Source of the DNA: a virus
Lineage: Duplodnaviria; Caudoviricetes
Strand: one strand, 5' to 3'
IMG/VR virus record: IMGVR_UViG_3300031853_000015
Location: 19,485-83,484 of that record
Length of the DNA: 64,000 nucleotides
The notes under the pieces were generated by a model. It was not told where the DNA came from. It made no database searches and saw only the letters and a list, made by a program, of their open reading frames with translations. Shown piece by piece: positions 1 through 21,500 of this stretch. The translations under genes and the position numbers were made by a program. Each line of letters opens with the position of its first letter. Position 1 is the stretch's first letter.

Positions 1-980
1 TTATCTGTATTTATATTTATTGTTTGAACATTTCCCATTGCATTGAGAATTATAGAATTAATGGATGTTTCAAAGGTATAATCCCCTGAAGATAATTCTA
101 TAATAAGAACATCATTTTCATCTACAATACCATCGATGTTAAGTATTCCATCATCATCTACTACACCAATTAAATCAAGGATATAATCCTCATCCTAAGG
201 CTCAGGTTCAGGTTCAGGCTCTGGAGTAGGTGTAGGTGTAGGTGTAGGTTCTGGTTCTGGTTTTTCCTCTTCATCTTCATAAGTAAAATAAATAGTATCC
301 TCATCCTTTTCTTCAAGGGCTTCATACTCAGATTCTGTAAGAAATTCATGATGTATTCCATCTACTATTATAGAAGAACCATCTGTTCCATCTTTACCAT
401 CTTTACCACTTACTTTAAATTCAGTTTTAACTCCATTTATAACCCAATAACCATCATCACTGATAGCTATAGCAGTATTTCCTGTAGATATGATAGTGGC
501 TCCATCTTTTCCGTCTTTTCCATCTTTTCCAGGGTCTCCTTTATCACCCTTATCTCCTTTATCTCCTTTATCTCCTTTAGGACCTGATGCAGTAAATTCT
601 GTTTTTACTCCACCAATTACCCAGTAGCCATCATCACTAATAGTAATCTCCTTACCTTCAGTACTAATTATAGTAGCCCCATCTTTTCCATCTTTTCCTT
701 TAAGAGCTTCTAACTACTCTGGAGTAAAATCATAATAAGTAAATGGATCTCCTTTATCTCCTTTATCTCCCTATGGTCCTTGAAGATCCATAGTGTCAAT
801 TATGGCTGTAATAAGAGTATTGAGGGTGGATAAATACACTCTATAGTTTACACCATTTCTGACTATAGTAAAGAAATCTCCTTCCTAAAGATTTGAGACT
901 TCTTTAAACTATGAATCTTTCTTAGAGTGTTGTTTAAGATATTCCTCAATTTTCTTATAGTCTTCTTGTGTGAAAAACAT
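1..980 (-). CDS. Collagen-like tail fibre/spike protein, runs off the left edge; TAG=Gln
   Basis: ATG at 980, MFFTQEDYKKIEEYLK (crAss tail-fibre-type N-terminus). Contains GP*GDKGDKGDPFTYYDFTPE*LEALKG, where TAG occupies the usual Q positions, plus G-K-D repeats. No TAA/TGA in frame down to base 1. Confidence 0.8.
200..262 (-). repeat. Hexamer tandem repeat encoding a (PE)n(PT)n(PE)n linker
   Basis: ggttca/ggtgta/ggttct repeats translate to KPEPEPTPTPTPTPEPEPEPEP. Confidence 0.9.
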
Positions 981-1017
981 ATATGTTATCTTTAATTATT
1001 TTACTATAGTTTAACGA

Positions 1018-1027
1018 TGCAAAGATA
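1018..1027 (-). promoter_or_regulatory. Bacteroidota -7 promoter element for the tail fibre gene
   Basis: TATCTTTGCA on the minus strand, about 40 nt upstream of ATG 980; matches TAnnTTTG. Confidence 0.75.
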
Positions 1028-1096
1028 CAACAATTATTTTAAATCCCCAAGAAAATAATGAAAAAATTAATTATATGATATAAAGTTAGTAACTGA

Positions 1097-1130
1097 TTTG
1101 TAGGTATAAAATATTTACTTTATCTTTGCA
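1097..1130 (+). promoter_or_regulatory. Bacteroidota -33/-7 promoter
   Basis: TTTG at 1097-1100, 20-nt spacer, TATCTTTGCA at 1121-1130. Confidence 0.8.
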
Positions 1131-1150
1131 GGAATGATAAAAATAATCAT

Positions 1151-1354
1151 ATGAAAATATTTAATTTAACTGAAAAAGAAGAAGAGGCTGCTGAAAAATT
1201 TATGGAGAAACACAGACATAAAGATGTTTTCAAAGGAGCTATAGGAGGGCATTTAAGTTATAGATTCACCCTTACTTCCATAGGTACATGTGTTTCTGTG
1301 AGCTGCAGTATATGTGAGAAAACTAAAAATATTACTGATTATAGTAAATGGTAA
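1151..1354 (+). CDS. Small Cys-containing protein, possibly Zn-binding; TAG-free
   Basis: 67 aa ending in FTLTSIGTCVSVSCSICEKTKNITDYSKW; has its own promoter and terminator. Confidence 0.75.
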   Translation: MKIFNLTEKEEEAAEKFMEKHRHKDVFKGAIGGHLSYRFTLTSIGTCVSVSCSICEKTKNITDYSKW

Positions 1355-1356
1355 AT

Positions 1357-1385
1357 AAAAAAGGTGGTAGAAATACCACCTTTTT
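1357..1385. terminator. Bidirectional intrinsic terminator
   Basis: AAAAAAGGTGGTA-gaaa-TACCACCTTTTT between convergent genes. Confidence 0.85.
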
Positions 1386-1423
1386 AAATATAATCTTTGA
1401 AAGTTTAACTAATTTAATTATGA

Positions 1424-1651
1424 TTACTTAAAGTTTCTAAATTCCATCATATTACTAAGCATATTTGCTAGTACATTTCTACCAAAATCATCTTCATTTT
1501 CCTGATTAGCTCTGGAGATGTAATGATTTATTACTGTAATAATCTGTTTAAGAAGTATATTATTTTCTTTAAGCAGTTTATTGTTCTAATGTGTTTTATC
1601 TTTGATGTATTCAATTGTATCAAAGATATAATCTTCTTCTCTTTTTGTCAT
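1424..1651 (-). CDS. Small hypothetical protein, 75 aa, 1 TAG
   Basis: MTKREEDYIFDTIEYIKDKTH*NNKLLKENN...FGRNVLANMLS, ending TAA. Absent from the ORF track because of the TAG. Confidence 0.7.
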
Positions 1652-1798
1652 AAAAATCAAAATTTAATATGCAAATAATAACTTTCAAATGACCAAATAT
1701 TTTAAGTTAAATATTGTTAATGCTTCAATATTTAAATCAATTTATTATCAAAGTAACACTTTTATTGTTAAACTCTTGATAATATAAAATAAAACAGT

Positions 1799-1808
1799 TA
1801 CCTTTGCA
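1799..1808 (+). promoter_or_regulatory. Bacteroidota -7 promoter for the virion RNAP operon
   Basis: TACCTTTGCA. The TTG used as start by the ORF track lies inside this element. Confidence 0.7.
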
Positions 1809-1842
1809 CAATCAAAATAATAATAGTAAAAAAACAAGAAAT

Positions 1843-4800
1843 ATGAATAGAGCATATTGTTATAGCCCTCAAGCTATTGATAAAAAACTGGCAAATTATA
1901 TGAGTACTCGTCCTTATGCTATAGCATGGACTCCTGGATTTATAGCTACTCTAAGAGGTGCTTATGATCTTGCCAATGGTTTCTCTGAAGAACAGGGTAA
2001 GGTTAATCCTATGTGGTCTTTAGATATAGATACTGAAGATTATGATGGAGACAGTGTACAAGCGGATAACCTTTATAATATAGCACAAACTTTAGCAGAC
2101 TTTAGATTTGAGAAAAAGAAGGAACAAGCAAATGCTATAAATAATTTTAATGAAAATAGAACTGAAATATGGACAACTATTTCAGATAATTATTCTGATT
2201 TAAATACATTTTATCAGAGAGCTTCTCAACTTTCCTTCTATTTTATTCAAGCTGTAGATAATTATATAGAACAACAAAGGTTGGAGGGTAAAATATTCAC
2301 TAGAAAGCAGATTATTGAAGGCATTCCTTTGGAAGATGAAGATGGTCATTATGTTATGTCTAATGGAAAGCCTATGATGGCAATAGATTCTGATAAAATA
2401 TTTAGTGCTGTATTCAATAGGTTTATGGAGGATTATTCTGAAAGAATGGATGATCCTAATACTAAAGAAGCAGCAAAGAAAGAATATTATCATAATGAGT
2501 ATCAGAAGATATTTAATCCTAAAGTATGGGCGGCTTTATTAATGGCCTCTAAAGCCCAGCTTAAACAAATGGAGGGATTAAAGGTTAGTCTTACTGATAA
2601 TAGTGCTTCTGAAGTAGATTTAAGTACTCTTAATGATAATGATTTATCAGACTTATTTATTGCAGAAGAATCTGTCAGGGAAGGTTGGCAAGTAATTACA
2701 GATTGTTTATCTGCTTATGGAAATCTTTCCAAAGAAGTTAGAAAGGCTTTGAGTTATATACCTTTATTAGATGAAAAAGGGCAAGCTTTAGAAGATGACT
2801 TAGGTTACGATATAAGAATGAGTTCTATAACTGCTTATCATGATTTAATGGATTTACTTAGGAATTGTCGAAGTAAATCCAAAATGATGAAACTTATTGA
2901 GAGAAGTCAAGGATTTAGAAGCCTTTATGATAAATTAGTTAATAATGAGGTTCTTCAGTCCCAATTATATAATAACTTTAGAAAAACATCCCAACTTTAT
3001 GTACAGATACAATGGGAATGGAATAAAATTAAGTTTTATGTTTTAAATAAAACTAAAGGAGAGCATTCTGTAGGAAATTATTTATTTAGTATAAAATATC
3101 GTCCTGCAGGAAGTAGTATAGCTGCTTCTAGTAGAACTCATTGGAGCCAAGCAGATCTTGATTCTTTAAGCAACCTTTTAAAACAGTTTGAAGATAAATA
3201 TGATTCTGATGGGAAGTTAACCTATAGTTTCTGGAAAGAAAGGGCAACTCAACAGGCAACCCTTCTACGTAAAGTTTTTAATGCTTTAGGTATAGCATAT
3301 ACTGATAAGGCCCTTTCTACTTTATTAGATAATAAAAAGAATCTTTCCGAGGTTGTTAAACAGCTTGCAGGTTTAAGCCAACATGGAGGATTAAAAAGTG
3401 AGAGAGCTGACACTGAAGGATACAATTTTTATGCTTGGCTTACTTATAAAACTAAAGAACAGGAAAAGGGTGATACTCAAGCTAAAATTGAAAAGATCAT
3501 CACTAAACTTGAAGAGAGTGGTAATGGAATTGTTTATGAAAATAAATGTAGAACTGTAAATGGTAAAGGACAATCTGTTACTTACTATGGTGATGTACAG
3601 CCAAATTTTATGGGAGACTTATTAGGCAAAATTCAATCTTTTGCTCAAGCATTTCCAGAAGAAAGGGAAGAAAGTAGAAAAGAATTTAAAGAGTGGTTAC
3701 GTAATAAATATTTTTCTAGTTCTCAATTTTGCACAGATTTTGATGCAGAGGGTAATCCTAAATCTTCCAGTAATGTTAAAAACTTTTTATTAAGAACTCT
3801 TTGGGAAGAAGCTAATGCTGATGTAACCAATGCTAGAATAGAAGCAACTAATAAGCAAAGAAAATTAGATAATGAGGCACCTCTTCCTTATGTTACTGAT
3901 ATGTTTGATGATAATAGCCTTACCTCTCAGTTTCGATTTATGAGAGTTGTAACAGGTAAGTATCAACAGACAGTCATTCCTTTTGAAAACTTTACTACTA
4001 AGCAACATTTTGAACAATTAGTAGGTTCTTATTTTGCATTAGACACTCAATCGAATCAGCAAATGCAGGAATTTGTTTATGTTCCTGTATTTGTATTAGG
4101 AGACAGTGGAGTATGTAAAGTTCTTAAAATAAAAAGAAAATCTACTTTTGATGATTATCAAGATGATAAATTTAATGGAGATTCAGTTGTTGAAGAACTA
4201 TATAACCTTTATGAGTCAGAACTTAGAAGAATGACTCTTTTCCAAAAATTTATTGAACAGAATAATAAAAAACATATTAAAAATAATCCTAATATACTCA
4301 AAACTTCCAAGAAATTTACAATGCTCACTTTCTTAAATGAAGAATTTAAAGGCAGAGACTTTAAAACTCTTGGAAAACAAGAAGTAAAACAGGCTATTAA
4401 TAAGTACTTAGAAAAAGGATTTGCCGCATTTTTAAAAGTAGGAGAAAATACAGGAGCTCTCAAAGTAGATAGTTCTGGAAAACTAGGAAAGAATCCTATG
4501 TATCAAGATATATGTAGGATAGCAGATCCTAGGAAAGAAGCCCATTCTAAAACTCCTGCACTTAGGGAAAGGCTTAAAGAGCTTTATTATAATGTATATC
4601 TTTCCAATCTTTTACAGTATCAGATTTTTACTGGAGACTTAGGATATTACGAAAGTGTAAAGGAGTTTCAGAAGAGATATAAGGAAGTTCATGCTCCAGG
4701 AGAAGTATTGGATGTAAATGCTACTTGGAAAGGTAAGGAAGTAGTTAAGGCAAATGCTCAAGGACTTAAAACTCAAAAGACAATATATTTTGAAGATATT

Positions 4801-7800
4801 GGAGTCAGTGTAGAAGAAAATAATAAGGAGCTTGCTGAAGTACTTCTTAAATTACATTCCTCTGATAGAGCTGCAGCTGAAAAAGCCATCGCTGAGGGTA
4901 TTTTAGAGCCTAAGAAAGGAATAGAAGAGGATGAAAGACAAAAGCGACTTAAAGAACTTTTAGGAAGTAATTATAATGTATATTTAAAGTTCATTACTAC
5001 TCCTAAATCTGAAGTAACACGTGGTTCAAGTGGTAGTTCTCAAACAGATGGTCAAGGTTTTAGGCATATAGATTCTTATAGAAAGATAGAAATAATGAGA
5101 GGTACTTGGAGTAGCAATCCTCTTAAGGAAGTATTGTATCAAGAGGTCTCAACTATTAATGAAGATTGTATAAAGAATCATCGCAATCCTACTCCTGAAG
5201 AACTTGATAGAATTCAAGCCTTCCATGTGACAATAATGCCTTTAAAGCCTTACCTATTTACTATGGAAAAAGTACATATAAATGATGGAAAGACTGATGA
5301 TAATCTGTTTGTTCCTGTACAACATAAATATGCAGAAGCTATATTAATTCCTTGCCTGCTTCCTGTTGGAAGTAAACTTAGAGAAGTAGCTGAGTATATG
5401 GGAGAGAATAATATTGATTTGATATGTTCTGATTCTGTAGTAAAGGTAGGTATGTGGGGACAAACTGATATTGAGGAAAAGAGTTCCACTGACATTTCTA
5501 GCTTTGTTAATGAGGCAAAGAAGAATATTAGTAAACTGCCTTCATCAGTTAAAACTGATAGCAGTCCTCTTAGAATAATGAGTATTGAAAAGGGTCTTGA
5601 TTTTAATATTTCTGTAGGAGAAACCTATAATGTCAAGTTAGATGATAAAAATGCTCAATATCATATTCTTGGGTATGAACAAGATGGAGATCAACATCTT
5701 TCTAAAATATGGTTTACATCTTCTGAAGCTCCCAATAAAGTATCTAGTTTAGTAGGAAGCACTCTTGCAGAATTTATTGATGCTGCAGGTAGTCATAATC
5801 CCATTAAAGCTAATACTAACAGTACTATAAATATTAAGGATAATCTATCAAAAGCTGTTATACATGAATTGAATTATGAAGATTATAGAATTCAATCTAA
5901 TGTTCCTGAACATATAAATGTAGAAAGGGCATTGGGTACTCAGATAAGGAAACTTATTATGGGTAATATTAATATGTTTTCTAAGGATGTTTATGGATAC
6001 TTAAAAGATAAAAATGGAGAAGATATATCTTTTAGACTTACTAAAGGAGGAAGTAAAATGAAACTTACTGGTAGAAATCTAGTTTCTTTATATACTTCTC
6101 TTATAGTAGCTAATATGATGCAATCTTTTGCTAAGTTTAAAAGAAATATTGAAAATGAAAAGAAATTAAGTACCCTTCTTACTTCTGCTATTGTTAATAA
6201 TGATAGGTACTCTTTACATCAATTGCTAGACATAGCAGTTAATGATGGCGAGTTTGCTACTCCTTTATATGAAGGTTCTATAGAGCATGATACTATAAGT
6301 ATGATAGCCAGTATCTTCAGAAAAGAAGTTAATAAGCAGGATATGAATGGAGGTAGTGCTGTACAAGTTTCTGATTGGGGAATTACTGCTAAAGAAGAAG
6401 TTACAGGTACTGAAAGACCTCTTAAATTTGTAACGGATGTAAATAATGAAAATGTATTATATGCAGAAATTGAAATTCCTTTTAACTTTACTTATATCAA
6501 TTCTGATGGTATAGAAGTGGCTTTGGACTTTAATACTTATTGTAACCCTGATGGAACTTTTAAATTAACAGGTAATACTATTGATATAAAAGGAGTCAAA
6601 GTAGCAGAAACTAAAATAGAGCATGATTTTCCTGGCATACTAGACATAATTGCATATAGAATTCCTTCAGAAAGATGTTACTCAATGCTTAATTGTAGAG
6701 TAGTCAGATGTTCCAATATGACAGCTGGAGGTACTATAAGAGTTCCAGCCCAAGGTACTACTATTGCAGGTTTTGACTTTGATATTGATAAGTTATACTT
6801 ATTAAGAAGAAGTTTTGTTAAACGAAGAGTAGCTGTAGAATCTGCATATTCAGGAGCCGAAAAGTATGATATTTTTGCTAAAATATATGCTATGGATGCT
6901 GAAAGACAAAGAGTTCTTGAAGCTAAAGATAAGTCTCAAAAAGCAAATATTATTAATGCTCAAGCAGAGAAGACTTTAAGAGAAATGAATCAAGATCCTG
7001 ATGATTATGCTTCAGTAGAATCTCTTTGGGAAGAACTTTTTATAAATCTAGAAAGTCCTTATACTACAGTATATGAAGAACTAAGTAATGAAGATAAAGA
7101 TTATTTAGAGAATAAGCTCATAATACCAGGAGAAAGATTAAAAAATGTAATTTTCTTAAGCAATCTCTTTAATGAGGAGAAAAGACGTAAAGTTTCAGAA
7201 ATCTCCGATGATAAAATTTACAAAGGATCTGAAGTTTTTCATATGTTATTTGATGAACTGAATAATGGTCAAATAAGTAAAAAAGGTTGGAAAATTTATA
7301 ATAAATTAGACTATTCTCAGGAATATTATGATGAGGAACAAGTAAGAGAAGATGAAGACTATATTCCTTCTTCTGCTATAATATCTAAGTTAAGAGCTAT
7401 AAGAGAAGCTTCAGGAGAATATCACTATGAAAAAACTGCCAAAGGAAAAGTAAAGAAGGTTTATGATAAGGCTTTAGCTGAATACTGGAATACTATGATT
7501 GAGCAGAATCCTTATATGGAAGGTGAAGATGCTTATGATAAAGGCAAACTCTTTGAACAAGCAGCAAAAGAACTTGGCTTATGGAAAGAGATTGAATATA
7601 AGGAAGAACTTGAAAATTATGATTTTGATAAAGGAGTAACACAGAATAGTAGGTCCTCTAGAAATAATCTTATCTTTGAGTTAATGAGACAGAGACTTAT
7701 GGACCCTGAGACTCTTAGAGATAGGTTAACTCCGGGTGGATTTGATAATTCTAGAAATGCTGCTGCATATTTGAAAAAGCTTCTACATATTAATGAAGAA

Positions 7801-10800
7801 CAAGATGCTGCAGATCCAAGTACTCTATTATTCTATAATCAGCTTAATCAAGTAGCTGCTAAATTAATTGGTGTATTTGCTAATCAAAGCACTAATCACC
7901 AATTATCATCTATAATAAGAAGTTTAGATTTGAGAGAACCTATTCTTTTCGATGGTATGATTGATGCTAAACTTATTAAAAGCACAGAAGCCTTGGAAGG
8001 ACTAGAAGATACTGAGAAAGAAGAAAAAATAGGGCGTAGTTTATTATCTAAAATTATACAGTTGAAGGATGGTACTATAGTAGATATAGATTTAAACCTT
8101 GCAGAATTCCTTGCTGCTTCTGTAGATGCTGTAAAGGATCCTGTATTGAATTATCTTAACTTTAATACCACTACTGCCTCAGTAGGAGCCTTACTTGCTA
8201 GAATGGGCTATGCTACCAAGGATATAGGACTTTTATTTAATCAGCCTATAATTAAAGAGGTATGTGATATTATTCAAAATAGTGGTAATACATTATCCTT
8301 TAATAGTGTAAAGAGTGATATTATTAAAAAATATGGTACTTATGATGAATATAAAAAGATTGCAACTGATGTAACATCTGAAACATTAGAAGACACTATA
8401 ACCAGATATATAGATGTTTCTGAAAAAGCTCCTAATGCTCAAGAGGCCTTTCAATCTCTAAAGCAAGAGAAAGATTATATGCAGACACAATTAGCTGCAT
8501 TGAAAATATTTGATCAGGCCTTCAAAGCTTCCAGAGAATTAAACAATTTTATAAATACCACTAAATTCACTGCGGCAAATGCTGTAGGCAGTACTTTAGG
8601 CTTCTTTTATAATCAGCAATATAAAGTAGAAGATTATGTTAATCAATCAGACAACATGTTAAAGATGGTTATTTATGAATCTCTTAAGAATGCTCAGGAA
8701 ATACAAGAGGGTTCTAAAGAAGTACAAGATAAGTCTCTTAACACTAAAATACCAAGCAGTCTGGTTAATGATAGAGAAGCTTATATAAAATCTCAAATAG
8801 AAAATCCTTTTGCTTTTGAGCAGTGTATGTATGATTTAAATAAGGAATTTCTTAAAATATTAAGTAAGTACTATCCTTATGATAAAGCTATTTATAAAAA
8901 TAGAAGAGAGGTATTAAGAGATTTTTTAGCTTATACTAGAGTATTGGATGCAGAAACTATAGATTATGCCCATAGAGAAACTATGCAGCATATATTAAGT
9001 TCCACTGATAGTGCCTTTAATCCTACAGCTATTTATGTCAATGAAGCAGGTGAAGAAATATTGATAGATACTGATAAAAAGGATCTTGATGGTAATCCTA
9101 TTAAGCGTCCCTTAACTAATAGAGAATATTATTTATATCAATTTCCTATTGAATTGTTTAATATGGAGGGAGTTCCCAGAATTGATGCTTTAAAAGAGAA
9201 ATATCTCAAATTTACCTATTCAACACATACAGACACAACTACTGGAAAAGTTAATGCACAATTAAATATATCTGTAGATTTAGCTGTAGAACAAACAGAT
9301 AAAAATACTTTTACTAATCTTTGGGCACAGTTAGCTTCTCAGCATTCAGACCCTCTTCATATAAACCAGATAAAAGTAGACTTTATAAAAAAGTATATAA
9401 AACTTCATTATCTTATTCCAATGGATATTACATTGAAGAATTTAGAGCGTGCTAAAGGAGAACGTTATGAAGCTTTAAATAAAAAATATGAAGACTATGA
9501 AGAAAAATTGAAAGATTTCTTAAAAGATATACTGTCCTCAGAACAGTTAGAAGAAACACTTACATTTGCTAATGCAGAAACCTTTATAAACGTTTATAAT
9601 GTAGATAGAATTAATCTTCCTGCTGAGGAACAAGAAGCATTAAATAAAGAAATCCAAAAGAAAATAAATATGGATAATATATGTAATAAAGTAGCTTTAG
9701 GACTATATTTTCATAATTATTATAGAACTGGTTTTGGTACAGGTCCTTTTAGCTTCACACAATTTACTCCTATTGAAGTGAAAAATCTTATTGAAATAGG
9801 AGAGGGGGCAGACAGAATGCCTTATCTAGATTATATAAGGCCTGATAATTTGGAAACCTTAGCTACTGCAGCAATTAAAGGCAGGTATCCTAGAAGTGCT
9901 GTTGAATTTGCTTATATGTATGCTTTAAATCATACAGATGATTACAAACTTGTCACACCTATGCCTTCTACAGGTAATCAAACATATGCCTCCTATTTTG
10001 TAGATGCTTATGGCTATGCTACTTCAAAGTTTTCTATTGATATACACACTGCTGAAAAAGATATTAAGGAGGCTGATAAGAAGTTTGTTATGGCTGTAGA
10101 TAAAGAAACAGGAGATTTTAAGGTACATCCTGTTATTAGAAGGGGTGGACAAATTTATGTAGCCACTATAGATGGAGAATATAATTTTACTGGTAATATA
10201 TTTGATTCCTCCAGGCACATAGTTACTTATATGAATGTACCTATCTTAGGAAAGAAAAATGTTTCTACTACATATGCCTCTACTTTAGATGAAGCTTTAG
10301 CAATAAAGAAGGGAGATGCAGAAGTGCTTACAGCAATTGAACAATCTATAAGTGATACAATTAAAGAAGATATTATAAGAAGACAACTGGAAGAAAAAGG
10401 AGAAGAAGTTGATGTTGATGATCTTCTACATCAAAGTGAAGAGGTACCCTCGGAAACTGTTGAGGAAAATCCAATAGGGGCTAACTTTGCAGAAGATGAT
10501 TCTTATACTGAAGAAGATGTAGATGCTCTTATGGAGAGAATATCTGAATGTAATCAAGTAAATGAAGATTTCTTATTGGAATATGTTTTAAAAACTTATG
10601 ATGAAACAGCTCCTGAAGATCAAGAGGTTGTAAGAGAAAAAGCTGTACCTGCTATTAAAGAAAAATTAAATAAAGCAGTAGAAGAAGGTCTTCCTGCATC
10701 TATGCAAAATACTAAGGTAGCAGAAGCTTATAAAAAGCAACTTCTAATTGAACAATTAGCAAACAGATTAAAAGCCGATGTAAAAGCAGGAAGAATTGAA

Positions 10801-10836
10801 GTTTATACAAAATTAACAAAAGAAAAAATATGCTAA
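1843..10836 (+). CDS. Single-chain virion-type two-barrel DNA-dependent RNA polymerase, about 2997 aa
   Basis: Catalytic GFDFDIDK (DxDxD) motif, AYRIPSE and QTDGQGF motifs typical of crAss/phi14:2-type RNAP. Likely start ATG 1843, stop TAA, no in-frame TAG. Confidence 0.9.
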   Translation: MNRAYCYSPQAIDKKLANYMSTRPYAIAWTPGFIATLRGAYDLANGFSEEQGKVNPMWSLDIDTEDYDGDSVQADNLYNIAQTLADFRFEKKKEQANAINNFNENRTEIWTTISDNYSDLNTFYQRASQLSFYFIQAVDNYIEQQRLEGKIFTRKQIIEGIPLEDEDGHYVMSNGKPMMAIDSDKIFSAVFNRFMEDYSERMDDPNTKEAAKKEYYHNEYQKIFNPKVWAALLMASKAQLKQMEGLKVSLTDNSASEVDLSTLNDNDLSDLFIAEESVREGWQVITDCLSAYGNLSKEVRKALSYIPLLDEKGQALEDDLGYDIRMSSITAYHDLMDLLRNCRSKSKMMKLIERSQGFRSLYDKLVNNEVLQSQLYNNFRKTSQLYVQIQWEWNKIKFYVLNKTKGEHSVGNYLFSIKYRPAGSSIAASSRTHWSQADLDSLSNLLKQFEDKYDSDGKLTYSFWKERATQQATLLRKVFNALGIAYTDKALSTLLDNKKNLSEVVKQLAGLSQHGGLKSERADTEGYNFYAWLTYKTKEQEKGDTQAKIEKIITKLEESGNGIVYENKCRTVNGKGQSVTYYGDVQPNFMGDLLGKIQSFAQAFPEEREESRKEFKEWLRNKYFSSSQFCTDFDAEGNPKSSSNVKNFLLRTLWEEANADVTNARIEATNKQRKLDNEAPLPYVTDMFDDNSLTSQFRFMRVVTGKYQQTVIPFENFTTKQHFEQLVGSYFALDTQSNQQMQEFVYVPVFVLGDSGVCKVLKIKRKSTFDDYQDDKFNGDSVVEELYNLYESELRRMTLFQKFIEQNNKKHIKNNPNILKTSKKFTMLTFLNEEFKGRDFKTLGKQEVKQAINKYLEKGFAAFLKVGENTGALKVDSSGKLGKNPMYQDICRIADPRKEAHSKTPALRERLKELYYNVYLSNLLQYQIFTGDLGYYESVKEFQKRYKEVHAPGEVLDVNATWKGKEVVKANAQGLKTQKTIYFEDIGVSVEENNKELAEVLLKLHSSDRAAAEKAIAEGILEPKKGIEEDERQKRLKELLGSNYNVYLKFITTPKSEVTRGSSGSSQTDGQGFRHIDSYRKIEIMRGTWSSNPLKEVLYQEVSTINEDCIKNHRNPTPEELDRIQAFHVTIMPLKPYLFTMEKVHINDGKTDDNLFVPVQHKYAEAILIPCLLPVGSKLREVAEYMGENNIDLICSDSVVKVGMWGQTDIEEKSSTDISSFVNEAKKNISKLPSSVKTDSSPLRIMSIEKGLDFNISVGETYNVKLDDKNAQYHILGYEQDGDQHLSKIWFTSSEAPNKVSSLVGSTLAEFIDAAGSHNPIKANTNSTINIKDNLSKAVIHELNYEDYRIQSNVPEHINVERALGTQIRKLIMGNINMFSKDVYGYLKDKNGEDISFRLTKGGSKMKLTGRNLVSLYTSLIVANMMQSFAKFKRNIENEKKLSTLLTSAIVNNDRYSLHQLLDIAVNDGEFATPLYEGSIEHDTISMIASIFRKEVNKQDMNGGSAVQVSDWGITAKEEVTGTERPLKFVTDVNNENVLYAEIEIPFNFTYINSDGIEVALDFNTYCNPDGTFKLTGNTIDIKGVKVAETKIEHDFPGILDIIAYRIPSERCYSMLNCRVVRCSNMTAGGTIRVPAQGTTIAGFDFDIDKLYLLRRSFVKRRVAVESAYSGAEKYDIFAKIYAMDAERQRVLEAKDKSQKANIINAQAEKTLREMNQDPDDYASVESLWEELFINLESPYTTVYEELSNEDKDYLENKLIIPGERLKNVIFLSNLFNEEKRRKVSEISDDKIYKGSEVFHMLFDELNNGQISKKGWKIYNKLDYSQEYYDEEQVREDEDYIPSSAIISKLRAIREASGEYHYEKTAKGKVKKVYDKALAEYWNTMIEQNPYMEGEDAYDKGKLFEQAAKELGLWKEIEYKEELENYDFDKGVTQNSRSSRNNLIFELMRQRLMDPETLRDRLTPGGFDNSRNAAAYLKKLLHINEEQDAADPSTLLFYNQLNQVAAKLIGVFANQSTNHQLSSIIRSLDLREPILFDGMIDAKLIKSTEALEGLEDTEKEEKIGRSLLSKIIQLKDGTIVDIDLNLAEFLAASVDAVKDPVLNYLNFNTTTASVGALLARMGYATKDIGLLFNQPIIKEVCDIIQNSGNTLSFNSVKSDIIKKYGTYDEYKKIATDVTSETLEDTITRYIDVSEKAPNAQEAFQSLKQEKDYMQTQLAALKIFDQAFKASRELNNFINTTKFTAANAVGSTLGFFYNQQYKVEDYVNQSDNMLKMVIYESLKNAQEIQEGSKEVQDKSLNTKIPSSLVNDREAYIKSQIENPFAFEQCMYDLNKEFLKILSKYYPYDKAIYKNRREVLRDFLAYTRVLDAETIDYAHRETMQHILSSTDSAFNPTAIYVNEAGEEILIDTDKKDLDGNPIKRPLTNREYYLYQFPIELFNMEGVPRIDALKEKYLKFTYSTHTDTTTGKVNAQLNISVDLAVEQTDKNTFTNLWAQLASQHSDPLHINQIKVDFIKKYIKLHYLIPMDITLKNLERAKGERYEALNKKYEDYEEKLKDFLKDILSSEQLEETLTFANAETFINVYNVDRINLPAEEQEALNKEIQKKINMDNICNKVALGLYFHNYYRTGFGTGPFSFTQFTPIEVKNLIEIGEGADRMPYLDYIRPDNLETLATAAIKGRYPRSAVEFAYMYALNHTDDYKLVTPMPSTGNQTYASYFVDAYGYATSKFSIDIHTAEKDIKEADKKFVMAVDKETGDFKVHPVIRRGGQIYVATIDGEYNFTGNIFDSSRHIVTYMNVPILGKKNVSTTYASTLDEALAIKKGDAEVLTAIEQSISDTIKEDIIRRQLEEKGEEVDVDDLLHQSEEVPSETVEENPIGANFAEDDSYTEEDVDALMERISECNQVNEDFLLEYVLKTYDETAPEDQEVVREKAVPAIKEKLNKAVEEGLPASMQNTKVAEAYKKQLLIEQLANRLKADVKAGRIEVYTKLTKEKIC

Positions 10837-10837
10837 T

Positions 10838-13800
10838 ATGAGTAAATGTGTATTTAATTTTGATGCTAAAAATGAATTTACTGGGGAAATAACTCAAAGT
10901 ATACTTTGGTAGAGTTTGAGAACCCACTTCAAAGATAATTATGTCATGGCAAAAGCTTATTATAAGATTGCCACAGATGAAGAATTTTTGAATTTAGCAA
11001 AAGACCGTCTTTCATTCAATGATCAAGGGGACCCCACCCTTGAATCATTGATGGAAGCACTGGGGGAAAACATAGATAAAGAAAACTTAAGAGGCATTAT
11101 TGAAAAAGGTTTAGGTGAAGGTAAGCCTATGGATTATAGTACTGCTATATACAAAATATAGGCATACAATAAAACATATCCTGATTCTAAATTTATAGCC
11201 TCTTTTGAAGAAAATAATGATGGTACTGTTACTATTAAAGCTCTAGACAATACTGCTAAAAACAAAGCTAAATTATTAAGCAAAATTAAAGATAGGGCTT
11301 TAATAGACAGAATGATGTATTATCTTAGAAATGCAGGAGTAGATGTTAAATTCTTAGAAGATGGAACATAGTCTGTTTATAGTACTGAAAATGCTGAAAA
11401 AAATGCTTAGGGGCTTTATGAACTTATCTAGCTATCTAATACCTCAAATAGAAGTATTCGTGAAGATTTAACTGAACATTGCGGAAATTTAATTATTGAC
11501 ATATTAGGAAAAAACCATCCTTTAGTTTCAAGATTAATGACTGCCTTATAGAATAAAGACTTCTATCAAACTATTATAGAAAATGAGGTTCCTAACTTTT
11601 TACAGCATAGATTTTCCAATGAAGGAGATGCCAGGGTTTTAGCAGGATGGTTAATAGGCAAATAGCTAGAAATGGGAGCAGACAGAGCTATGAAAGCTGA
11701 TAGTTTCTTAGGAAAAATTTTTAAAGTAGTAGGAAACCTCATTAATAGAATGGTAGATCTTGTTAAATATATTTTAAAAAAGATTCCAAGTAAAGAGTAT
11801 GCTGCATCTTTGAGACAAGTTAATGATATAGCCTTATAGATTGCTCAAGGATTTGCTTCCCCTAATTTTCAAGGAATATCTGAAGAAGAGATAGAAAATA
11901 TTAATACTAGTTTTATCAAAGATACTATTAATCCCTTAAAACTTTCTACTAATGTTAGGGTTACTAAAAAAGCTTTAGATGAGATTAACAGGTTTGTATA
12001 GAGAGTGAAACTTTATGATACTAATTTTTATAAAGGCCTGCAAAAAGACTTATCTAAAGTAGAAGGATTTATTGATTTTACTAAAGTACTCTCTGCAGAT
12101 AAAACTATTATGGATGAAGAAGCTATGGTAGCTTTAGTAAATGCTGTACAAATGCTAATCTCAAACCATAATACTATTGTAGAAAGATTAAATAAAATTG
12201 ATTTTACTGCAGAAGCTGATTTTACTAAGAATATGGGTAAATATGCTAACTATATAAGAAGTGCTTTGGCCTATGCTTATACTGCAGAGAATATTGTTAA
12301 ATTAATAAAGCAATATACAGTAAATGATAAAACTCTTCCTTCTGAAGTTGTATTAAATGATTTTACACAAATCAAAGTACCAGCTAAATATGGAGGAATG
12401 ACTTATGTAGACCTAACAGAAATTAATAAAAGATTAGACACTCTAGTTAACTCTGCAGGAGGTATGTTCCGAGTTGTAAAAGCAAAGTAGAAAGCTTATG
12501 TTTTGAGATTCCTTACTGAAGCTATAGGCAGTCCTCAAATAGAAGTAGCTAGTAGAGTAATAGGATTTAAAGGTGCTGTAGAGGATGAACATATTTTGAC
12601 CATAGAACAGATTATGGATGAGTTAGGCAATGATTTAAATTGGTGGGAAAGATATTTTTCTTCTATGTCTAACAATCCTGATATTTGGGGATAGGCCTTT
12701 GATAAAATAACTAAGATAGCCAAACTTAATGCTAATAGATAGTATTTAAAAGACCGTGATGAATTAATATTAATAGAGCAGTATGCTTAGGATAAACATG
12801 TAAAGTTTGAAAAACTCTTTGATAGAGATGATAAGAATATTCCTACAGGATATTTAATAGGATATATTGATTATAATGGAGACCGTTTAGGTGTAGACTG
12901 GGCCAAATGGCAAGAAGACTTTGATGAATTTACTAAAAGGAAAAAGGACGAATTTCAAAAAATATATCAAAAGGAATTAGCCAAAGCAAGAGAAGCTAAA
13001 AGAGCAGTACTATGGAATGCTTTTTTTAAGGAAGCGTATAAAGAATGGCATAAAGAGAATTCTGTAACAATTGTAGAAAGAAATACGGAAGGAAAGGTTA
13101 TTAGATATGTTAATATGCCTAATCCAAGTAAGGAAAAATATGGTTCTGATAAATATGATAAATTATCTAAAGATGAGAAAGATGTATTAGATGAGTATCT
13201 TAAATGGAAAATCAAATAGGATAAAAAGCTTCCTAAAGGATCTACTTTAACTTTTAGAGTCCCTTAGATTTTAGGTTCTACTGTAAATCAAATACGTAAT
13301 AGAAGACTTACAAAACAGAATCTTCCAAAGGCAATACTTACTACTTTGATGTAGAATATATGTGACACTGTTGTAAAAAATGCAAATGATATAGATTTTG
13401 GTAGTGATCTTACAGTAAATGCACCAGATGTATTAAATGATAGATTGGCATATGAAGATGATAAAGTCGAAAGGATTCCTTTGTTTTATATTAATAGATT
13501 ATCTGAAGAACATAGAATAAGACTATCTACAGATCTTATAGGAAGTAGTATGGCCTATTCTGCTATGACAAACCAATATAATTATCTACAAAAGATTAAA
13601 GATTCTTTGGAACTTAGTCATGACTAGATGAAGGATAGGATTGTTAAAGTAAGAGGAAAGGTAGGGCCTGATCAGGGGCAATCTAATGCATATAAGAGAG
13701 TTACTACCTTTATGGAGAAAGAATTATATGGCTTGTAGTTTGGTTATAAAATGTCTGGTATGCAAGCAGCTCTTGCAAAATTAGTATAGTTGTCTACAGC

Positions 13801-15514
13801 ATTGGCTTCAAGGATGTTTCTTGGAGGTAATATTCCAGGTGGTGTTGCCAATACAACAATGGGATTCACTGAAGTGCTAAAAGAAGCTGCTGTTGGAGAA
13901 TATTTTGATCTAAAAGATTGGGGAAGTGCCATAGCAGAATATTTTGGAACTGATAAAGATAATAACCCCGAATATAATTTCCTTACAGATAATTTGTTTG
14001 TAGATAGCTTCAGATAGATTAAACGAAATAAAGTAAATCAATTTTCAGAATATTTTGATGCCTTTGGAGATAATAACAGACAATTCCGATATAATAACTA
14101 TTTTGGGGAAAAGTATTTTAAATTTAAAGGAAAAGAATATTCTGTAGATTTAGAAAATCTTAAAATAGCTGATATATTTTATCATAATGCTTTTGCTCCT
14201 TATAGCATAGGAGACCATTTTATGCAGTTAATACCTTTCATAGCATTAGCAAAAAGTATCAAATTGCATTATCTTGAAGATGGAAAAGTGGTTACTAAAA
14301 GTATGTATGATTGTTACTAGATTCTTCATGAAGGGGACTTAAGAGAGGAGCATATAAGTTCCAGAGGTAGATTTGGACTACCTAAACGTAATTATGTAAA
14401 AGACAAGGCAAATGTATAGCTTGTAGAAGATTTAGATAAGAAAATATCTAATATGGATGCTCTCATTGCAGCTATAGAAAATCATATTTCAAGTTTAAAT
14501 AGGTTTGGTTTTAAATCTTTTGATACTACTCCTTTTCAAAGTATAATTGATGAATATCACATAGAAGTCAATGATGATGAGTCTAGTCCTGTAAATAAGG
14601 AAAGTATATAGAAGCTTAAAAATGAACAATCCAAGTTAAGACAGTAGTTGCATGATTTAACTTGGCAGTCTGAAGATGAAAATGCTTTTAAACTTAAGGC
14701 CAGAGAAATAGGAAACAGATTACATGGTATTTATAATACATAGGATAAAGTAGAATTTTAGTAGAATATTCTAGGCAATTCTATATTAGCCATGCGTGGT
14801 TATATGTTAGGAATGGTAGAAAGACGTTGGGGCAGTAGTAAATATAGCTTAGCCTTAGGTTAGGATGTTGAAGGAAGTGAAAGAACTTTTTGGAAAACTT
14901 GGTTTGCTTTTTTGGGAGGCAATATGACTTTTAAACACATGGTTGCTCTGTAGTTATATCTCCCTTTAGTTAGACCTCAATATGCTAAAAAATTAATGAA
15001 AGACTATGGTTTCAGTGATAATCAATTTTATAACATGAGAAGACATCTTATAGACTGGCTTGTTATATTAAGCACTAGTATATTAGTTGGAGGAGTGTTT
15101 AGACTATTTGATTATTAGGGCATATTAGGAAGGCCTTCAGATAGTGATCCTGATGATTATTATCCTAAAAATAAGGATGATTATGCAGCAGCTTTGGCCT
15201 ATTATTTTATATCTAGATTATATATGGAACAGGCTGCATATAATGAACTTACAGCTGCTGCATAGGTAGAAGGTCCTAGTGTTTTCTCTTTAATAGGTTC
15301 TAATGTAGCAATGCTAGATAATGCTCTTACTATACTTAATCTTGCTATAAATGGAGATGAGTATAAACAAGGACCTTTTGCAGGCCAAAGTAAAGCTAAG
15401 ATTAAATTTCTTAAGTATATGCCTATATTTCGCTGGTGGTATACTGTAGATCAAGATCCTAGAAAATCTGCAGAAGCTTTTGAAGTTAATAGAGGAGGAA
15501 TTAGTAGAAGATAA
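10838..15514 (+). CDS. Large virion (ejected/cargo) protein, about 1558 aa; TAG=Gln
   Basis: ATG 1 nt after the RNAP stop. Track fragments 10916, 12005, 12503, 13445, 13790 and 15311 share one frame and join through TAG; ends TAA. Confidence 0.8.
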
Positions 15515-15534
15515 AACAACAGAATTTAAATACA

Positions 15535-15571
15535 AAGAGGAAGGGAAAATCTCCCTTCCTCTTATTTTTTT
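15535..15571. terminator. Bidirectional intrinsic terminator
   Basis: AAGAGGAAGGGA-aaatc-TCCCTTCCTCTT followed by a T tract, between convergent giant genes. Confidence 0.85.
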
Positions 15572-15589
15572 CATCTATTAAAGATTTCT

Positions 15590-18500
15590 TATAATCCTTT
15601 TACGTTGTACTCGCACACTTGATGCAGGTACTCCTGCTGTATGACAAGTTTTAGTATCATCTATTTCTTTAGCTTCTTCTGTAGTACTCATTCCTTCTAC
15701 TTTAACTTCAGAACCTACAACAGGATTTGCTAAATTTGAAGTTAATGTTTCTTTTTCCTATAAATGTAAATCTGAATGAATTACAATACCAGAAGGAGGT
15801 GGAGCCTCTACTTTCATATCAGCAACTCCTGAAGGATTCTATTCTCCATTTTCTATCTATAATTGTTTTATAATAGAATCAATTTTAGCTTCCTATGCTT
15901 CAGTCAAATTGTTTACATCTATAGAAACTTCAGATGTCATAGGTATATTTAAAGAAACAGCATAAGAAGATTTTAATATCTTTTCACGTAAAGTAGCATC
16001 TTCCTTACCTTCTTTTAATATTGCAATTTCTATAGGAGTAAATCCTACAGCCCTAAGCATTTTCTCTGCAGATTCAGACAGTGCTGTTTTTTCTTTTGCA
16101 CGTATTTTTGTGACTAGCATTTGTATGTCTATAGGCATTCCTAATCTAGTCTTTTCAGGATTTGTAAGTACAACAGGCTTGCCATTTAGCAGAAGTTGCT
16201 CTCCTTCTTTAGAATAAATATTATCCTCGGAAGGGGCCTCATAATCTACTTGGATAGGTATGATATGCACAGAGTCTACTTTTATACCCCATTGTTTCTC
16301 TAACAAATTTTTATAAACATTTAACTATATTCCATATTTATTAAATAAAACATCCTAGAAATTATCATCAGATCTAAAGGTTTTCATATCATATATATGA
16401 TACTTACCAAAGTTATCTACAGTTAACATATCCAAATGTCCTGTATTAGGAACTTCTATAGTTTTACCATTTTTAAGAGTAACTTTAATAGTACCATCTG
16501 TTACAACTTCTTCTGAAATTATTCTAGTCTCTCCTCTATCAAGCATCTGCTATTTAAGAACATTTAATCCTTCTACCATTTCATCAAGTACTTCTTTACT
16601 TAATACAGGATACTTAGCATAATCTACCTTTTTGAATAAGAAATTTCCTTCATCATCTGTTTCAAAGAAATCTCTTATAAAAGTATCTACTGCTGTACCT
16701 ATTATAGTTGAAGGTATATGATATGGGTTATCTTCTGAGAAATTACTATCATACAATATACCTGCTATTGTAGTTGCAGACAAATGTCCTTTAACATAGA
16801 GTTTTCCTTTCTAACCTCCCCCCTCTCGTTTCTTTTTTATTTCAGCTACACGTTTCCTGGAATACTTAAGAATTTTGTCTACAGTAAGTTTAACATTACT
16901 TGCAAGATTCTCTGCTACAGAAGGGCCTTTTTCAATAGTAGCATTTGCAGCATGACCATCATTACCTGCCAGATTGCCAGCATTGTCTCCATTGAATACT
17001 GTAGGAGCTATAGGAGCATTTGCAACAGGATTTCCTTCTAAAGTATAAGGAGCTGCAATATAAGCATATACCCCAGGAATACCTTCCTAGGAAAAAGATA
17101 AGATACCATCATCAAACAAAGCCCTTGCAATCTCTATGCCCATTTTGCTAGAGGAATCTTCCTATGTATTTAAGTTTGACCTGTACTCTGCTAAATCTTT
17201 TTCATGACTATTCCAGCCTAAACCTGCAATTTGGTTATCTCCTCTAAAAACAAATTCTGACTCTCCTCCTGAAGTTTCCACAGTATCAAATAGGAAATTT
17301 CTTATAAGAGTCATAGCAGAAGCATTATCTAAAAAAGTGACATTTGTTGGAATACTTAGTAACTCTGCTGTTTTAGTTCTCTGATAGGTTAATACTACTT
17401 GATAATGAGGTATATTCTATCCTTTAACTTCTTTTGAAACAGTTTTAACTTCTATGGAATATTCTTTGTTACCATTACTACTATAGAATATATTCTAGAT
17501 TTCTTTCTCAAAATCTTTACTTAACTGCATATCTCTAGATGCAGGAGTGGGAAGTTCTGTAGCCTTCTTAAGAGCCCAATTTAATCTTGTAACTAAATGC
17601 TTAAGCATAGCACTTCCTTCTATACCATTAGATAATAAGAAATCATCTAAATTTTGATTATTCCTTTTTATAGCATCCAGTAAAGTTAGAGTTTCAGTAC
17701 CTCTTACATCCTATATTTCTATAGTAGTATCTTTTAAAGGCTATGTAAATACTCTTAATTCTCGGTCTTCTCCATTCTCATAATCATATTTGTAAAATAC
17801 TCCTTGTTTCCCCTTAGTTTTAAACAGATTGCTTAAAACATAATCTCTAAATTTAGCATAGAGAGAGGTTTCTTTACCTGTATTTTTACCTTTAAAAATA
17901 TCTTCAAATACTTCTTCAACTTTACCTAAAGTAGAATTAAATCCTAATTTAGCTAAAGCAATATCAGCAATTGATGTAAAAGATCCTTTTTTCATTGAAG
18001 GAGGAGTAACTTTTCTTATTCTTATTAATGTAGAAGTAACAGGATTATTTTTATCATCTCTAATAAGCTAATCTGTTAATACAACTCCTTCTTTGATAGC
18101 GGCTTTTCTTAAAGGTTCTGTTCTACTTTGACCTAAAGAAGGTTTAGAATAATCTTGTCTTTCAGAAGTTGCAGGAGCTAATCCAATAGGAGTATAATGT
18201 ACATCTCTGAGGTTTCCTTTTCCATCATCCTACTGTATTACTATACCTCCTTTTTCATCTTCTACAACTGCTACTACAGGTAAATCTCTTAATTGCTCAT
18301 AATCAGGTAATGCAGAGACTTCATCTAACATGGATTTAGGAACTATAAAATAGACTGTTTTTCTGTCTTTAGGATTTCTCTTAGCAGCCTCTTCCCTAAG
18401 TATGCGATCCATAGCACTAATTCCTTCTTCTCCAAATAACTTAGCAAAGGCATCTTTTGTTTTTCCATAGGCAGGTCTGTCTTCTCTACTTTCCCATAGT

Positions 18501-21500
18501 AAAGGATTCTTAAATTCTATTGTACTACTCTGCCTACCTTCTTCATTTTTGAATATATTATCCATTACTTCTTTAGTTTCCTCCTCTGCCTTTTGATGCT
18601 CCTATTTAACTTCTTCTTTCTATTTAACCTCTTCTTCAGGAGCTATTTTACCCTCATGTTCAATAGTTTTAGGAGTTGCAGATTCTGTGGATTTACTACT
18701 TCCTTCCTCAGTGTCTATTAAGAGCTTCTTATATTTATCTACCATAGATTGTGCTACTCTATTAACACGCTCTTCGCTATTAACATACTCTTCTTCTTCT
18801 CTTCCAGGTCCTCCAGGATTTAATGCATTAAGTTTGTCCAAGTATTCCCTAGCTGTGATATTTCCATTTAAATAATCTGCAGTAGCTTGAAGGTGACCTT
18901 GTTCAATATCATTAACTTCTTTATCTCCTATATATTTTTCATAATAGTTATTAACTTCCTTAAGAGTAGTTTCTCTATCCATAAATAAATTTGGATTAAC
19001 TTGATATCTGCCTGTTGGAGTAGAAGCTTTAGGAGCAACAGATTCAGGTTGTTCAGCAACTTCAGGTTTAGGAACACTAACTTCACGCTGTCTTTCCTCT
19101 ATAATACGTTTATTGGTGGTATAATCTTCTATAGCTTTTTGTAATAGGTCTCTTACTGACATATTCTTATCAGTAGAAGTTACCATATCTATAATACCTA
19201 GAGGAGTATCTAAAGCAACATTATCATTTGTCTCTAAAACTTTTTGAATGTCTTTTATATTTTTATCAAAAAGTTCTAATATTGCTGCTCTATCTGAAAG
19301 ATCTAAAGGATTTTCCTTAGAAGCTTTTTCTTGTAAATATTCAACTACTGCATCAATAATATTCTTTTGGTTATCATCTACCTCTGTTACCTATGAAATA
19401 AACTCAGTTCTATCCTACTCATTTGCTACAGCAGTTTTATACTCAGCACTGTTGACCCATCTTTTTAGTTCATTTTTATACAATATTGCAGAAGTAGTAC
19501 GGGCATAAGCATAAAAGGCTTCTTTATCAGCTATTATTTCATTAATTGTTTTCTCATTTTCCTATAGCCTATTATATAATGTGGCTGCATCAGCAATATC
19601 TACTTTGAAATTAGAATTCTTTTTCTATTCCTACTCAATTAATTCTTTTATAATAGCCTACTGTTCATAACTAAAGTCTCTTGGATTTAAAATCATTTCA
19701 GCTCTCTACTCAGGATTAAGCTCCATTATTTGTTCTTTACTTAGAGTGGTTGGAGTTTTTTCAATACCCTCTTCTGCTTCTTGAATTTCTCTTTGTAGTC
19801 TTTGCTTTTTCTTTAATTGCTTCTAAAGATTTTCCAACTTCTTTTTAAAACGTGGTAACTACCATTTATCAACTGCTAGCATTTGTGTCTATTGTTCTGT
19901 TAACTCGTCATAAGACTTAAACTATTCAATCTATTTTTGCTTTTGTTCTATAGTAGCTTTAGTTTTATTAATCTCTTCTTGTATATTATCTATCTATTCT
20001 TTATTAGTATTACTAGTTCTATTATATTCTACAGCATCATTTGTTTCAGTATTATACCTAGTATTCCCTGTTAGTGCCTAAGTAATAGATTTTAATCTGT
20101 CTTCCCACTAATCCTATATAGTATAGGAATATGCTAATTGTACTGCAGCATCATCGTTTATATTATAATTCTAGAAAATTTTTCGTATATTTCCAAGATT
20201 TTTACGTAAGGTACTGTTCAGTTTAAGAAGTTTCTAAGCATTTGATTGAAGCTGCAGCTAAGCATAGAGTTTTTTTCCTTCATCATCCATCTAAACAACT
20301 TCTCCCTTTTCATTAGTACTAACATGTTCATCTAAAAGATGCACATTTTCAGGAGCACCTAAAAAAGCAGTAATATCTTCATCTGTTATTTGACCTTCTG
20401 CTATTCTCTTTAAATCTTCAAAATAGCTTTTAGCTATTTCTCCATAACGTCCTCCTTCTTCTTCAAGCTTAGCTAAGTTATACAGTATGGCAAAACCTAA
20501 ACCATCATTAGCGTCCTTTAAATCAATAAATTTTCCAAAATCATGGTTATCTTTTCTTCTGGCTGCCCAATAAAGTAATTGGTGAATATCATTAACTTTA
20601 ACTCCATTATCTGCTACTATTTTATTTAGCTACTATAATCTCTCATCAGTATTCTTTTGTTCCTCTCTAGTCATTGCTATACTTCCTACAAGAGAATTTC
20701 CCAAGAATTGATTTGCAATACTCCATTTAGATAGTTTTCTTCCATTTTCATCTGTAGAAAAATTATTCCACCATTTAGCCCAAGTACCTGTATTTTGAGT
20801 ATCTCCTCCTTTAGCTTGATCAAAAAAACTTGTAAATATTTTTAAGGTTCCTAAAGGATTCAGAGATGTTACTGTACCTAGAGCTCCTACAAATCCATCC
20901 ATGAAAGATTGTTTGTCAAATAAACTTTCACCTCCAGAATTAACTCCAGCCAAAAAGTTACCCATAACAGCAGTAGATTGCTAATAAGCATCGGGATTGT
21001 ACTTTACCTGCATATAATCATTGAAGTCATGCAAATGATATCCAGTAGCAAAACCTACTGAAACATCATCCATATAATTACTCCAAAAACCTCCCCAAAC
21101 ATTTTTACCTGCTTGGGTAACTGCTTCTGCACTCTATCTCCAACGTGAAGTATTTCTTTCTAATTGACCTGCCTCATTAATTTTATATTTACCAAATTTT
21201 CCTTGAAGCTTTTTTTCTATTCCTAACAATTCAGAAGATTTAGTAAAGTCAGGACGCAACTTTTCTGTACTAAAAAATTTTTTAGCTTGATTATAAGTAT
21301 CACGTACAGTTCTTAAAGGCTTTAATGGATTAGGAACTTCTAGAGGGATTCTTCCTTTATTTACTCTTCTTGCTGCATCCCTATAAATCCATGTTCTATA
21401 AGCAAGATTAATACCTGTATTTCTTAAAGATTCAATGGTAAAATTCATGTTATAAGCATCTGCTGCTCTTTTGTTAAGAGCTTCAAAATCCTCACTCTTT

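Follow-up and report, generated by a model that had tools for sequence, protein, structure and literature searches.

A catalytic RNA polymerase gene without in-frame TAG, next to a TAG-rich partner gene, in a clade of TAG-recoded crAss-like phages

In the described TAG/TGA code-block phages, TAG is read as Gln in late genes, a suppressor tRNA(CTA) heads the late strand and the early genes are TAG-free; the role proposed in the parts of this literature drawn on here is translational gating of late proteins (Ivanova 2014; PMC7886860; 10.1101/2021.08.26.457843; 10.1101/2022.06.29.495998; PMC9523058). In the crassvirus crAss001, which uses the standard code, the RNA polymerase (RNAP) genes gp50 and then gp49 converge on gp47 (Shkoporov 2021, PMC8375218). 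RNA-seq placed gp49 and gp50 among the middle genes and gp47 among the late genes, and its authors asked why the production of RNAP subunits is temporally split (PMC8375218). A third reference is gp66 of phage phi14:2, the virion RNAP of known structure (PDB 6VR4; Drobysheva 2021). Here we describe the RNAP gene in a 64,000-nt stretch (the window) that covers positions 19485-83484 of an 83.5-kb contig of a crAss-like phage (IMG/VR record IMGVR_UViG_3300031853_000015). The window has the gene order and orientation of crAss001 at this locus, and its RNAP resembles gp66 in profile homology and in the DFDID catalytic loop, although identity to gp66 is very low and the protein is ~800 amino acids (aa) longer. 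The RNAP gene contains no in-frame TAG, and its partner gene, the gp49 homologue that starts 1 nt downstream, contains 31.

The locus shares the features listed above with the code-block phages, but in the published passages the code switch follows the strand switch and takes in whole modules, whereas here it falls between co-oriented genes and leaves a TAG-free island among late genes. In crAss001 the split is transcriptional; here a further split, at the level of translation, separates the homologues of gp50 and gp49, which are co-expressed in crAss001. The passages of Yutin 2021 (PMC7886860) that we draw on place reassignment in genome parts with putative late genes, and Fig. 3 of that work marks in-frame stops in the transcription block. 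According to the MgCod preprint (10.1101/2022.06.29.495998), replication and transcription genes are over-represented among the TAG-free genes, and code switches track strand switches; Zeta phage Lera is given, in the passage that mentions it, as having TGA in its RNAP. In the corresponding sections of the Borges 2021 preprint (10.1101/2021.08.26.457843), families preferring TAG were tested in crAss-like phages, and avoidance was tested only for the integrases of other phages. Those phages, the temperate Garnet and Topaz, resemble the present case in that one gene family is statistically depleted of the reassigned stop, which was read as a need for expression before the switch; protein class and lifestyle differ, and the RNAP gene of the window is depleted totally and stands in contrast to its operon partner. 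A TAG-free catalytic RNAP, a code switch inside an operon and two RNAP regimes are not stated in the literature passages searched.

An earlier sequence-only reading of the window had described the RNAP open reading frame (ORF) as open in the standard code for about 9 kb, with a hundred or more Gln codons, all CAA or CAG, between giant neighbours that carry dozens of TAGs. All of this was borne out. The 3010-codon frame that begins at a TTG contains 88 CAA, 40 CAG and 0 TAG, and the 2997-aa gene from the likely start contains 127 CAA/CAG and 0 TAG; the two neighbouring giant genes hold 31 and 62 TAGs (Table 1). That reading had also called for TAG/(TAG+CAA+CAG) to be counted gene by gene and for the zero to be tested. 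Pooled over 17 late genes, TAG makes up 0.376 of the Gln-like codons, and at this share ~55 TAGs are expected in the RNAP gene, so that the observed zero has a log10 P of -26 (binomial) or -24 (Poisson). The gene is not short of Gln-like codons (42.5 per 1000 against 43.6 in the next gene), and its codon usage is that of the late genes (relative synonymous codon usage, RSCU, r=0.98; equal G+C content at third codon positions, GC3). In its two other frames it has 12.5 and 7.7 TAGs per kb, where its neighbours have 11-16 and 6-11. Only the reading frame is thus depleted, which speaks against an effect of mutation or of restriction sites. With a P of ~1e-24, a normal off-frame TAG content on the same strand as a TAG-rich partner, an RNAP-partner junction that recurs in independent assemblies and samples, and Logan contigs that bridge the region, the chance that the zero reflects accident, mutational bias or a chimeric assembly is negligible.

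To compare the locus across recoded lineages, TAG and CAA/CAG were counted from recoding-aware gene calls and from our own ORF analysis (Table 2). Single-protein searches found none of the relatives' loci, and an alignment-based search was required. The RNAP is TAG-free in the window and in four further lineages at 31-65% identity to the window's protein, and in these five 0/533 Gln codons are TAG in total. The contrast between RNAP and partner in the TAG-free relatives is significant in each (Fisher p 1e-3 to 3e-16). When the partner proteins of these five lineages were aligned, 84 of the TAG columns carried TAG in one lineage only, 12 in two and 2 in three. As partner TAGs are mostly lineage-specific, TAGs have kept arising 1 nt downstream of the RNAP gene, and none has become fixed in its ~9 kb. 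The independent gain in the partner together with the conserved zero points to ongoing purifying selection on the RNAP gene. Sub-clades have some early partner TAGs in common: codon 25 is TAG both in the window and in L004, and L005 shares TAGs at codons 52 and 60 with L008. The partner of L004 is front-loaded, with 3/8 of its TAGs in the first 107 codons. That the RNAP gene was acquired recently from a phage with the standard code, and has yet to accumulate TAGs, was the other outcome that the sequence-only reading had named as fatal to it. Such an import is very improbable: codon usage and GC3 are those of the neighbours, the zero persists down to 31% identity, RNAP and partner have diverged in parallel (65/40/41/32% against 65/38/37/25% identity in L004, L005, L008 and L071), and the RNAP tree places no close standard-code relative beside the clade.

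Table 2. TAG against CAA+CAG codons in the RNAP and partner genes of recoded crass lineages
Lineage	RNAP identity to window	RNAP, TAG/(CAA+CAG)	Partner, TAG/(CAA+CAG)	Remark
Window		0/127	31/37	
L004	65%	0/107	8/75	
L005	40%	0/92	22/46	
L008	41%	0/97	12/50	
L071 (= G001)	32%	0/110	41/59	MCP (major capsid protein) 81% identical
L149		4/100	19/71	intermediate
L075 (= G002)		56/65	33/38	
L145		46/90	24/58	125-kb contig
L009, L037		17-35 TAG per piece		RNAP split

The RNAP TAG share across lineages is bimodal, being either about zero or equal to that of the partner (0.463 against 0.465 in L075; 0.338 against 0.293 in L145). In the intermediate L149, the only 4 TAGs of the RNAP lie past codon 2561, beyond the catalytic core, which also speaks for selection on the RNAP. 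In RNAP trees built with quick IQ-TREE (LG+G4), a clade on a long stem unites the window with L004, L005 and L008 (SH-aLRT, the approximate likelihood-ratio branch test, 100). L145 and L149 each branch off deeply on their own, L071 joins L075 and L009 in a grouping that the program flagged for long branches, and L037 is nested among standard-code phages. These positions imply that recoding arose several times, with both RNAP outcomes. By MCP, G001 stands close to the window, and the two TAG-free groups might share one origin. Genome size (125-137 kb) was considered as a determinant of the TAG-free state and rejected, for the 125-kb contig of L145 has a TAG-rich RNAP.

We propose that purifying selection removes every in-frame TAG from the RNAP gene in the window's clade. 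The RNAP gene would then be the one large late-region gene that host ribosomes could translate in full under the standard code, without the amber-suppressor tRNA, and the partner and the gp47 homologue would be blocked by TAG, from about codon 25 on, until suppression is active. One mRNA could thus give polymerase at any time and the partner only after the code switch. From the TAG pattern we infer early or middle synthesis of the RNAP in this clade: it would be made before the switch, at the middle stage, when crAss001 transcribes gp50, and selection may act on this early supply. More speculatively, the new RNAP might already be at work within that cycle of infection, for instance on genomes that have been replicated. 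Taken as a whole, an RNAP kept TAG-free by selection and supplied without the suppressor before the switch is in our judgement the likely explanation. The starting premise of the sequence-only reading, that crAss-type RNAPs are late-made, is inaccurate for crAss001, a crassvirus with time-resolved RNA-seq, in which gp49 and gp50 are middle genes (PMC8375218). Since both are already middle genes there, the amber-free state fits the prior data and overturns none of them.

The identity of the genes was examined by tblastn, motif and profile search. None of the three giant proteins had a match in Pfam, PHROGs or a single-sequence PDB search. By tblastn, the RNAP matched 'putative RNA polymerase' genes of Steigviridae, and a profile of 16 RNAP homologues matched chain A of PDB 6VR4 with E=6.1e-24. 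The match runs through four colinear stretches and takes in the DFDID loop, a motif invariant in the 16 homologues. By blastp to crAss001 (MH675552), the window's RNAP paired with gp50 through five colinear high-scoring segments, the 1558-aa gene with gp49 (3e-23; 5e-134 to the Kolpuevirus subunit) and the 2723-aa gene with gp47. The gene order matches that of Kolpuevirus and crAss001, with the RNAP in a transcription block beside the cargo and muzzle genes. On this homology, the ORF at 1843-10836 encodes the catalytic crAss-type RNAP (homologue of phi14:2 gp66 and crAss001 gp50), and colinearity with 6VR4 suggests that both double-psi beta-barrel domains would lie in its single chain. In the crAss001 record (MH675552, 53433-64723) the DxDxD motif, SDFDVDK (residue 1483), lies in GenBank gp50, and gp49 is the 1349-aa partner; Shkoporov 2021 (PMC8375218) called gp49 the predicted catalytic subunit, with which the GenBank motif position disagrees. 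Packaging of the RNAP in the virion is known for phi14:2 and, by proteomics, for crAss001 (PMC8375218, PMC10136315), and by homology the window's RNAP is assumed to be packaged, injected and put to transcribing the early genes.

The position of the gene bears on a second explanation, in which the RNAP is ancestrally the last gene of a standard-code replication block, as in G001 and Steigviridae, its mRNA is present mainly before the switch, and early protein is not needed. In Kolpuevirus, crAss001, G001 and G002 the RNAP indeed comes after the replication block and shares its strand. In G001, a complete 125-kb genome, the TAG-free replication block continues into the TAG-free RNAP, so that the code boundary is the RNAP-partner junction; we count this exact coincidence in favour of our own proposal. 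The enrichment of TAG-free genes for replication and transcription, in the part of the MgCod preprint cited above (10.1101/2022.06.29.495998), would also agree with passive membership. However, the partner, which apparently shares the RNAP's transcript, is rich in TAG in all the recoded lineages examined, and that mRNA must therefore still be translated after the switch. The RNAP of G002 occupies the same position and yet is TAG-rich, its code boundary lying upstream of the RNAP, one gene away from that of G001. In the window's clade, moreover, the RNAP stands apart from any replication block: the RNAP-partner pair is flanked by TAG-bearing tail-fibre genes of the opposite strand (BACON, BspA-LRR and collagen/tail-tip) and by the gp47 homologue. 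That the RNAP is clean even among TAG-bearing late genes favours selection on this gene over an effect of its position, and we regard passive membership as quite improbable. Code switch and strand switch do not coincide in the window, where both genes of the pair are on the same strand, and a switch between co-oriented RNAP and partner also occurs in L004, L005, L008 and G001. The window's tail-fibre and TerL genes carry TAGs, and the TAG status of other late genes varies by lineage.

The RNAP and partner genes form an apparent operon (Table 1). No terminator-like site was found between them, and a bidirectional hairpin closes both this unit and the convergent late unit. The first TAG of the partner is codon 25 (10910-10912) in the window and lies at codons 10-55 in the relatives. 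The sequence-only reading had pointed to a promoter of the RNAP's own, of the form TAnnTTTG. This promoter exists, with TACCTTTG at 1799-1806, and the core TAnCTTTG is invariant in the window, L004, L005, L008 and L071 within divergent AT-rich DNA; as a clue to timing it fails. In the window, promoters of this host-type class also stand before the genes for the tail fibre, cargo 1, ring 2, the scaffold-like protein and the portal. They stand as well before both the TAG-free replication-block genes and the late-block genes of G001 and before the TAG-rich RNAP of G002, for which reason promoter class was rejected as a timing marker. A promoter-like box in the 3' end of the RNAP gene (~10482-10490) was rejected, as it is not conserved in L004, L005 or L008. 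Sequence inspection and a pattern scan found a host-type promoter, TTTG-N20-TATATTTG, before the suppressor tRNA cluster, and a TATCTTTGCA box heads the unit upstream; the idea that new phage RNAP is required to transcribe the suppressor tRNA was accordingly dropped. TAG content is the sole visible discriminator between the RNAP gene and its neighbours.

Table 1. Features of the RNAP locus and of the suppressor tRNA cluster, in window coordinates
Feature	Position	Strand	Details
Host-type (Bacteroidota sigma-A-like) promoter	1776-1806	+	TTG, 20 nt, TACCTTTG (-7 box 1799-1806), 37 nt before ATG
Standard-code ORF of RNAP	1804-10836	+	3010 codons from a TTG
RNAP catalytic subunit gene	1843-10836	+	likely start ATG 1843; stop TAA 10834-10836; 2997 aa = database protein P0001
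DFDID metal-binding motif	6775-6789	+	residues 1645-1649 in GFDFDIDKLY (1643-1652); invariant in 16 homologues
Partner gene (gp49 homologue, 'RNAP subunit')	10838-15514	+	ATG 1 nt past the RNAP stop; 1558 aa; 31 TAG, 37 CAA/CAG
Bidirectional hairpin terminator	15535-15563	.	12-13-bp stem
Convergent giant gene (gp47 homologue; late 'RNAP subunit')	15578-23749	-	2723 aa; 62 TAG, 82 CAA/CAG
Amber suppressor tRNA (anticodon CTA)	54410-54482	-	phage-encoded; found by ARAGORN
tRNA-Gln(TTG)	54512-54585	-	suppressor tRNA(CTA) 29 nt downstream
Host-type promoter of suppressor tRNA cluster	54921-54955	-	TTTG, 20 nt, TATATTTG at 54921-54928

Several observations weigh against the proposal that selection for suppressor-independent translation keeps the RNAP TAG-free. 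The RNAPs of L075 and L145 carry TAG at partner density, and those of L009 and L037 are also TAG-rich; synthesis before the switch is thus no general requirement of recoded crassviruses. The sequence-only reading had taken such TAG-dense orthologues as decisive against it, and in these four lineages its explanation fails; the zero does recur in L004, L005, L008 and L071, and selection for suppressor-independent translation stands for this clade (no in-frame TAG, 0/533 in five lineages) and not as a general rule. A promoter class common to late, replication and suppressor-tRNA units is uninformative on RNAP timing and lends the proposal no transcriptional support. An RNA library (X3) yielded contigs of at least 99% identity that span portions of the tail-fibre genes, the RNAP gene and the partner, and for which DNA carry-over is possible; they cover RNAP and partner alike and do not allow expression to be ranked, so they add no support on timing. 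In G001, a minus-strand block beside the structural genes (G001:C1:344-11899, genes of 183-712 aa) and a 1034-aa gene by a portal-sized gene (26610-29714) are TAG-free as well.

TAG may also be avoided for the sake of yield. Read-through competes with host release factor 1 (RF1), and a 3000-codon essential enzyme could be kept TAG-free for full-length product, with timing irrelevant. The abundant virion proteins are TAG-poor (MCP, 1 TAG in 502 codons; auxiliary capsid protein, 1 in 380), which suggests that TAG lowers yield. Against this, equally long genes are laden with TAG (the gp47 homologue has 62 in the window, where it is 2723 aa long, and 111 in G001, where it is 3436 aa long), and the RNAPs of L075 and L145 carry 46-56. 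A virion RNAP is, besides, expected to be a low-copy cargo protein. We therefore hold protection of yield to be an unlikely reason for the zero, and prefer the supply of RNAP before the code switch. If this is so, the catalytic RNAP may have a job in the infected cell without its gp49 and gp47 partners, such as amplifying early or middle transcription from replicated genomes, with the partners needed later for packaging or injection; we offer this extension only tentatively, as a possibility that we think less probable than its opposite.

The window comes from a phage that uses TAG as a Gln codon. Pfam and PHROGs searches identified a crassvirus MCP, auxiliary capsid protein, ring proteins 1-4, muzzle, cargo 1, cargo 2, portal and terminase; every one of these genes lies on the minus strand and, if read in the standard code, is broken up by TAG (34 TAGs in muzzle, 23 in cargo-1, 20 in portal). 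In-frame TAGs in conserved late genes fall at Gln-compatible positions, as defines a code-15 phage; among the residues aligned with TAG in other lineages, Glu comes first and CAA next, with CAG frequent too. The TAG share of the MCP (41317-42825, minus strand) and auxiliary capsid (37072-38214, minus strand) genes is 0.05-0.06, against 0.3-0.5 in most late genes, and the most abundant virion proteins are TAG-poor, yet still gated. An RNAP identical to the window's is also encoded on a 132-kb contig in the European Nucleotide Archive (ENA), which shows that the 83.5-kb assembly is partial. The public runs that hold window DNA (searched with window 1-20000) are all bovine gut metagenomes. The suppressor tRNA cluster has just upstream of it, in the same orientation, a 1717-aa ORF (55484-60637, minus strand) without a match in Pfam, PHROG or PDB. 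All of its 8 TAGs lie in the first 379 codons; the remaining ~1340 codons are TAG-free and hold most of the 43 CAA/CAG of the gene, and an internal ATG opens a standard-code ORF of 1294 aa (55484-59368). Its codon usage is slightly off (RSCU r 0.91-0.96).

Other recoded phages showed further peculiarities. In L009 and L037 the RNAP appears as two ORFs ~0.9 kb apart (L009:14809-15705, L037:14197-15083), with no intact DFDID motif in any plus-strand frame; the gap at the catalytic motif may be an intron, an intein or another interruption, like the Zeta-group disruption of Yutin 2021. The MCP genes of the 94- and 102-kb recoded relatives (G002:C1:6048-9782, G003:C1:1750-4045) match in 3-4 separated pieces, which suggests introns; the MCP is uninterrupted in the window and G001. 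In L155, a crass lineage in which TGA is recoded to Trp, the partner has 18 TGA and only 2 TGG; its RNAP (L155, 1-7007) was considered as a case of the same split and set aside as uninformative, the 969-aa fragment having 0 TGA but only 1 TGG. The 136-kb TAG-recoded gut phage phAss-1 (PMC10607447) was rejected as a relative on its tape-measure protein and is not a crassvirus.

The function proposed for stop-codon recoding in gut phages is to gate the synthesis of late proteins, and its rules at the level of single genes are poorly mapped. Here the gate acts within an apparent operon and parts the catalytic RNAP from two giant partner proteins. A block-based multi-code gene caller that ties the code switch to the strand switch would misplace the RNAP-partner boundary. 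The two discrete RNAP regimes bear on the question raised by crAss001, namely the temporal split of RNAP subunits and the action of new RNAP within the same cycle, and a TAG-free or TAG-rich RNAP offers a sequence-only marker by which uncultured crassviruses could be sorted by their likely expression programme. If the RNAP does have a job before the switch, the TAG pattern would show the crAss transcription module as dissected genetically by nature, and recoded crassviruses would have two different infection programmes, marked by the two regimes.

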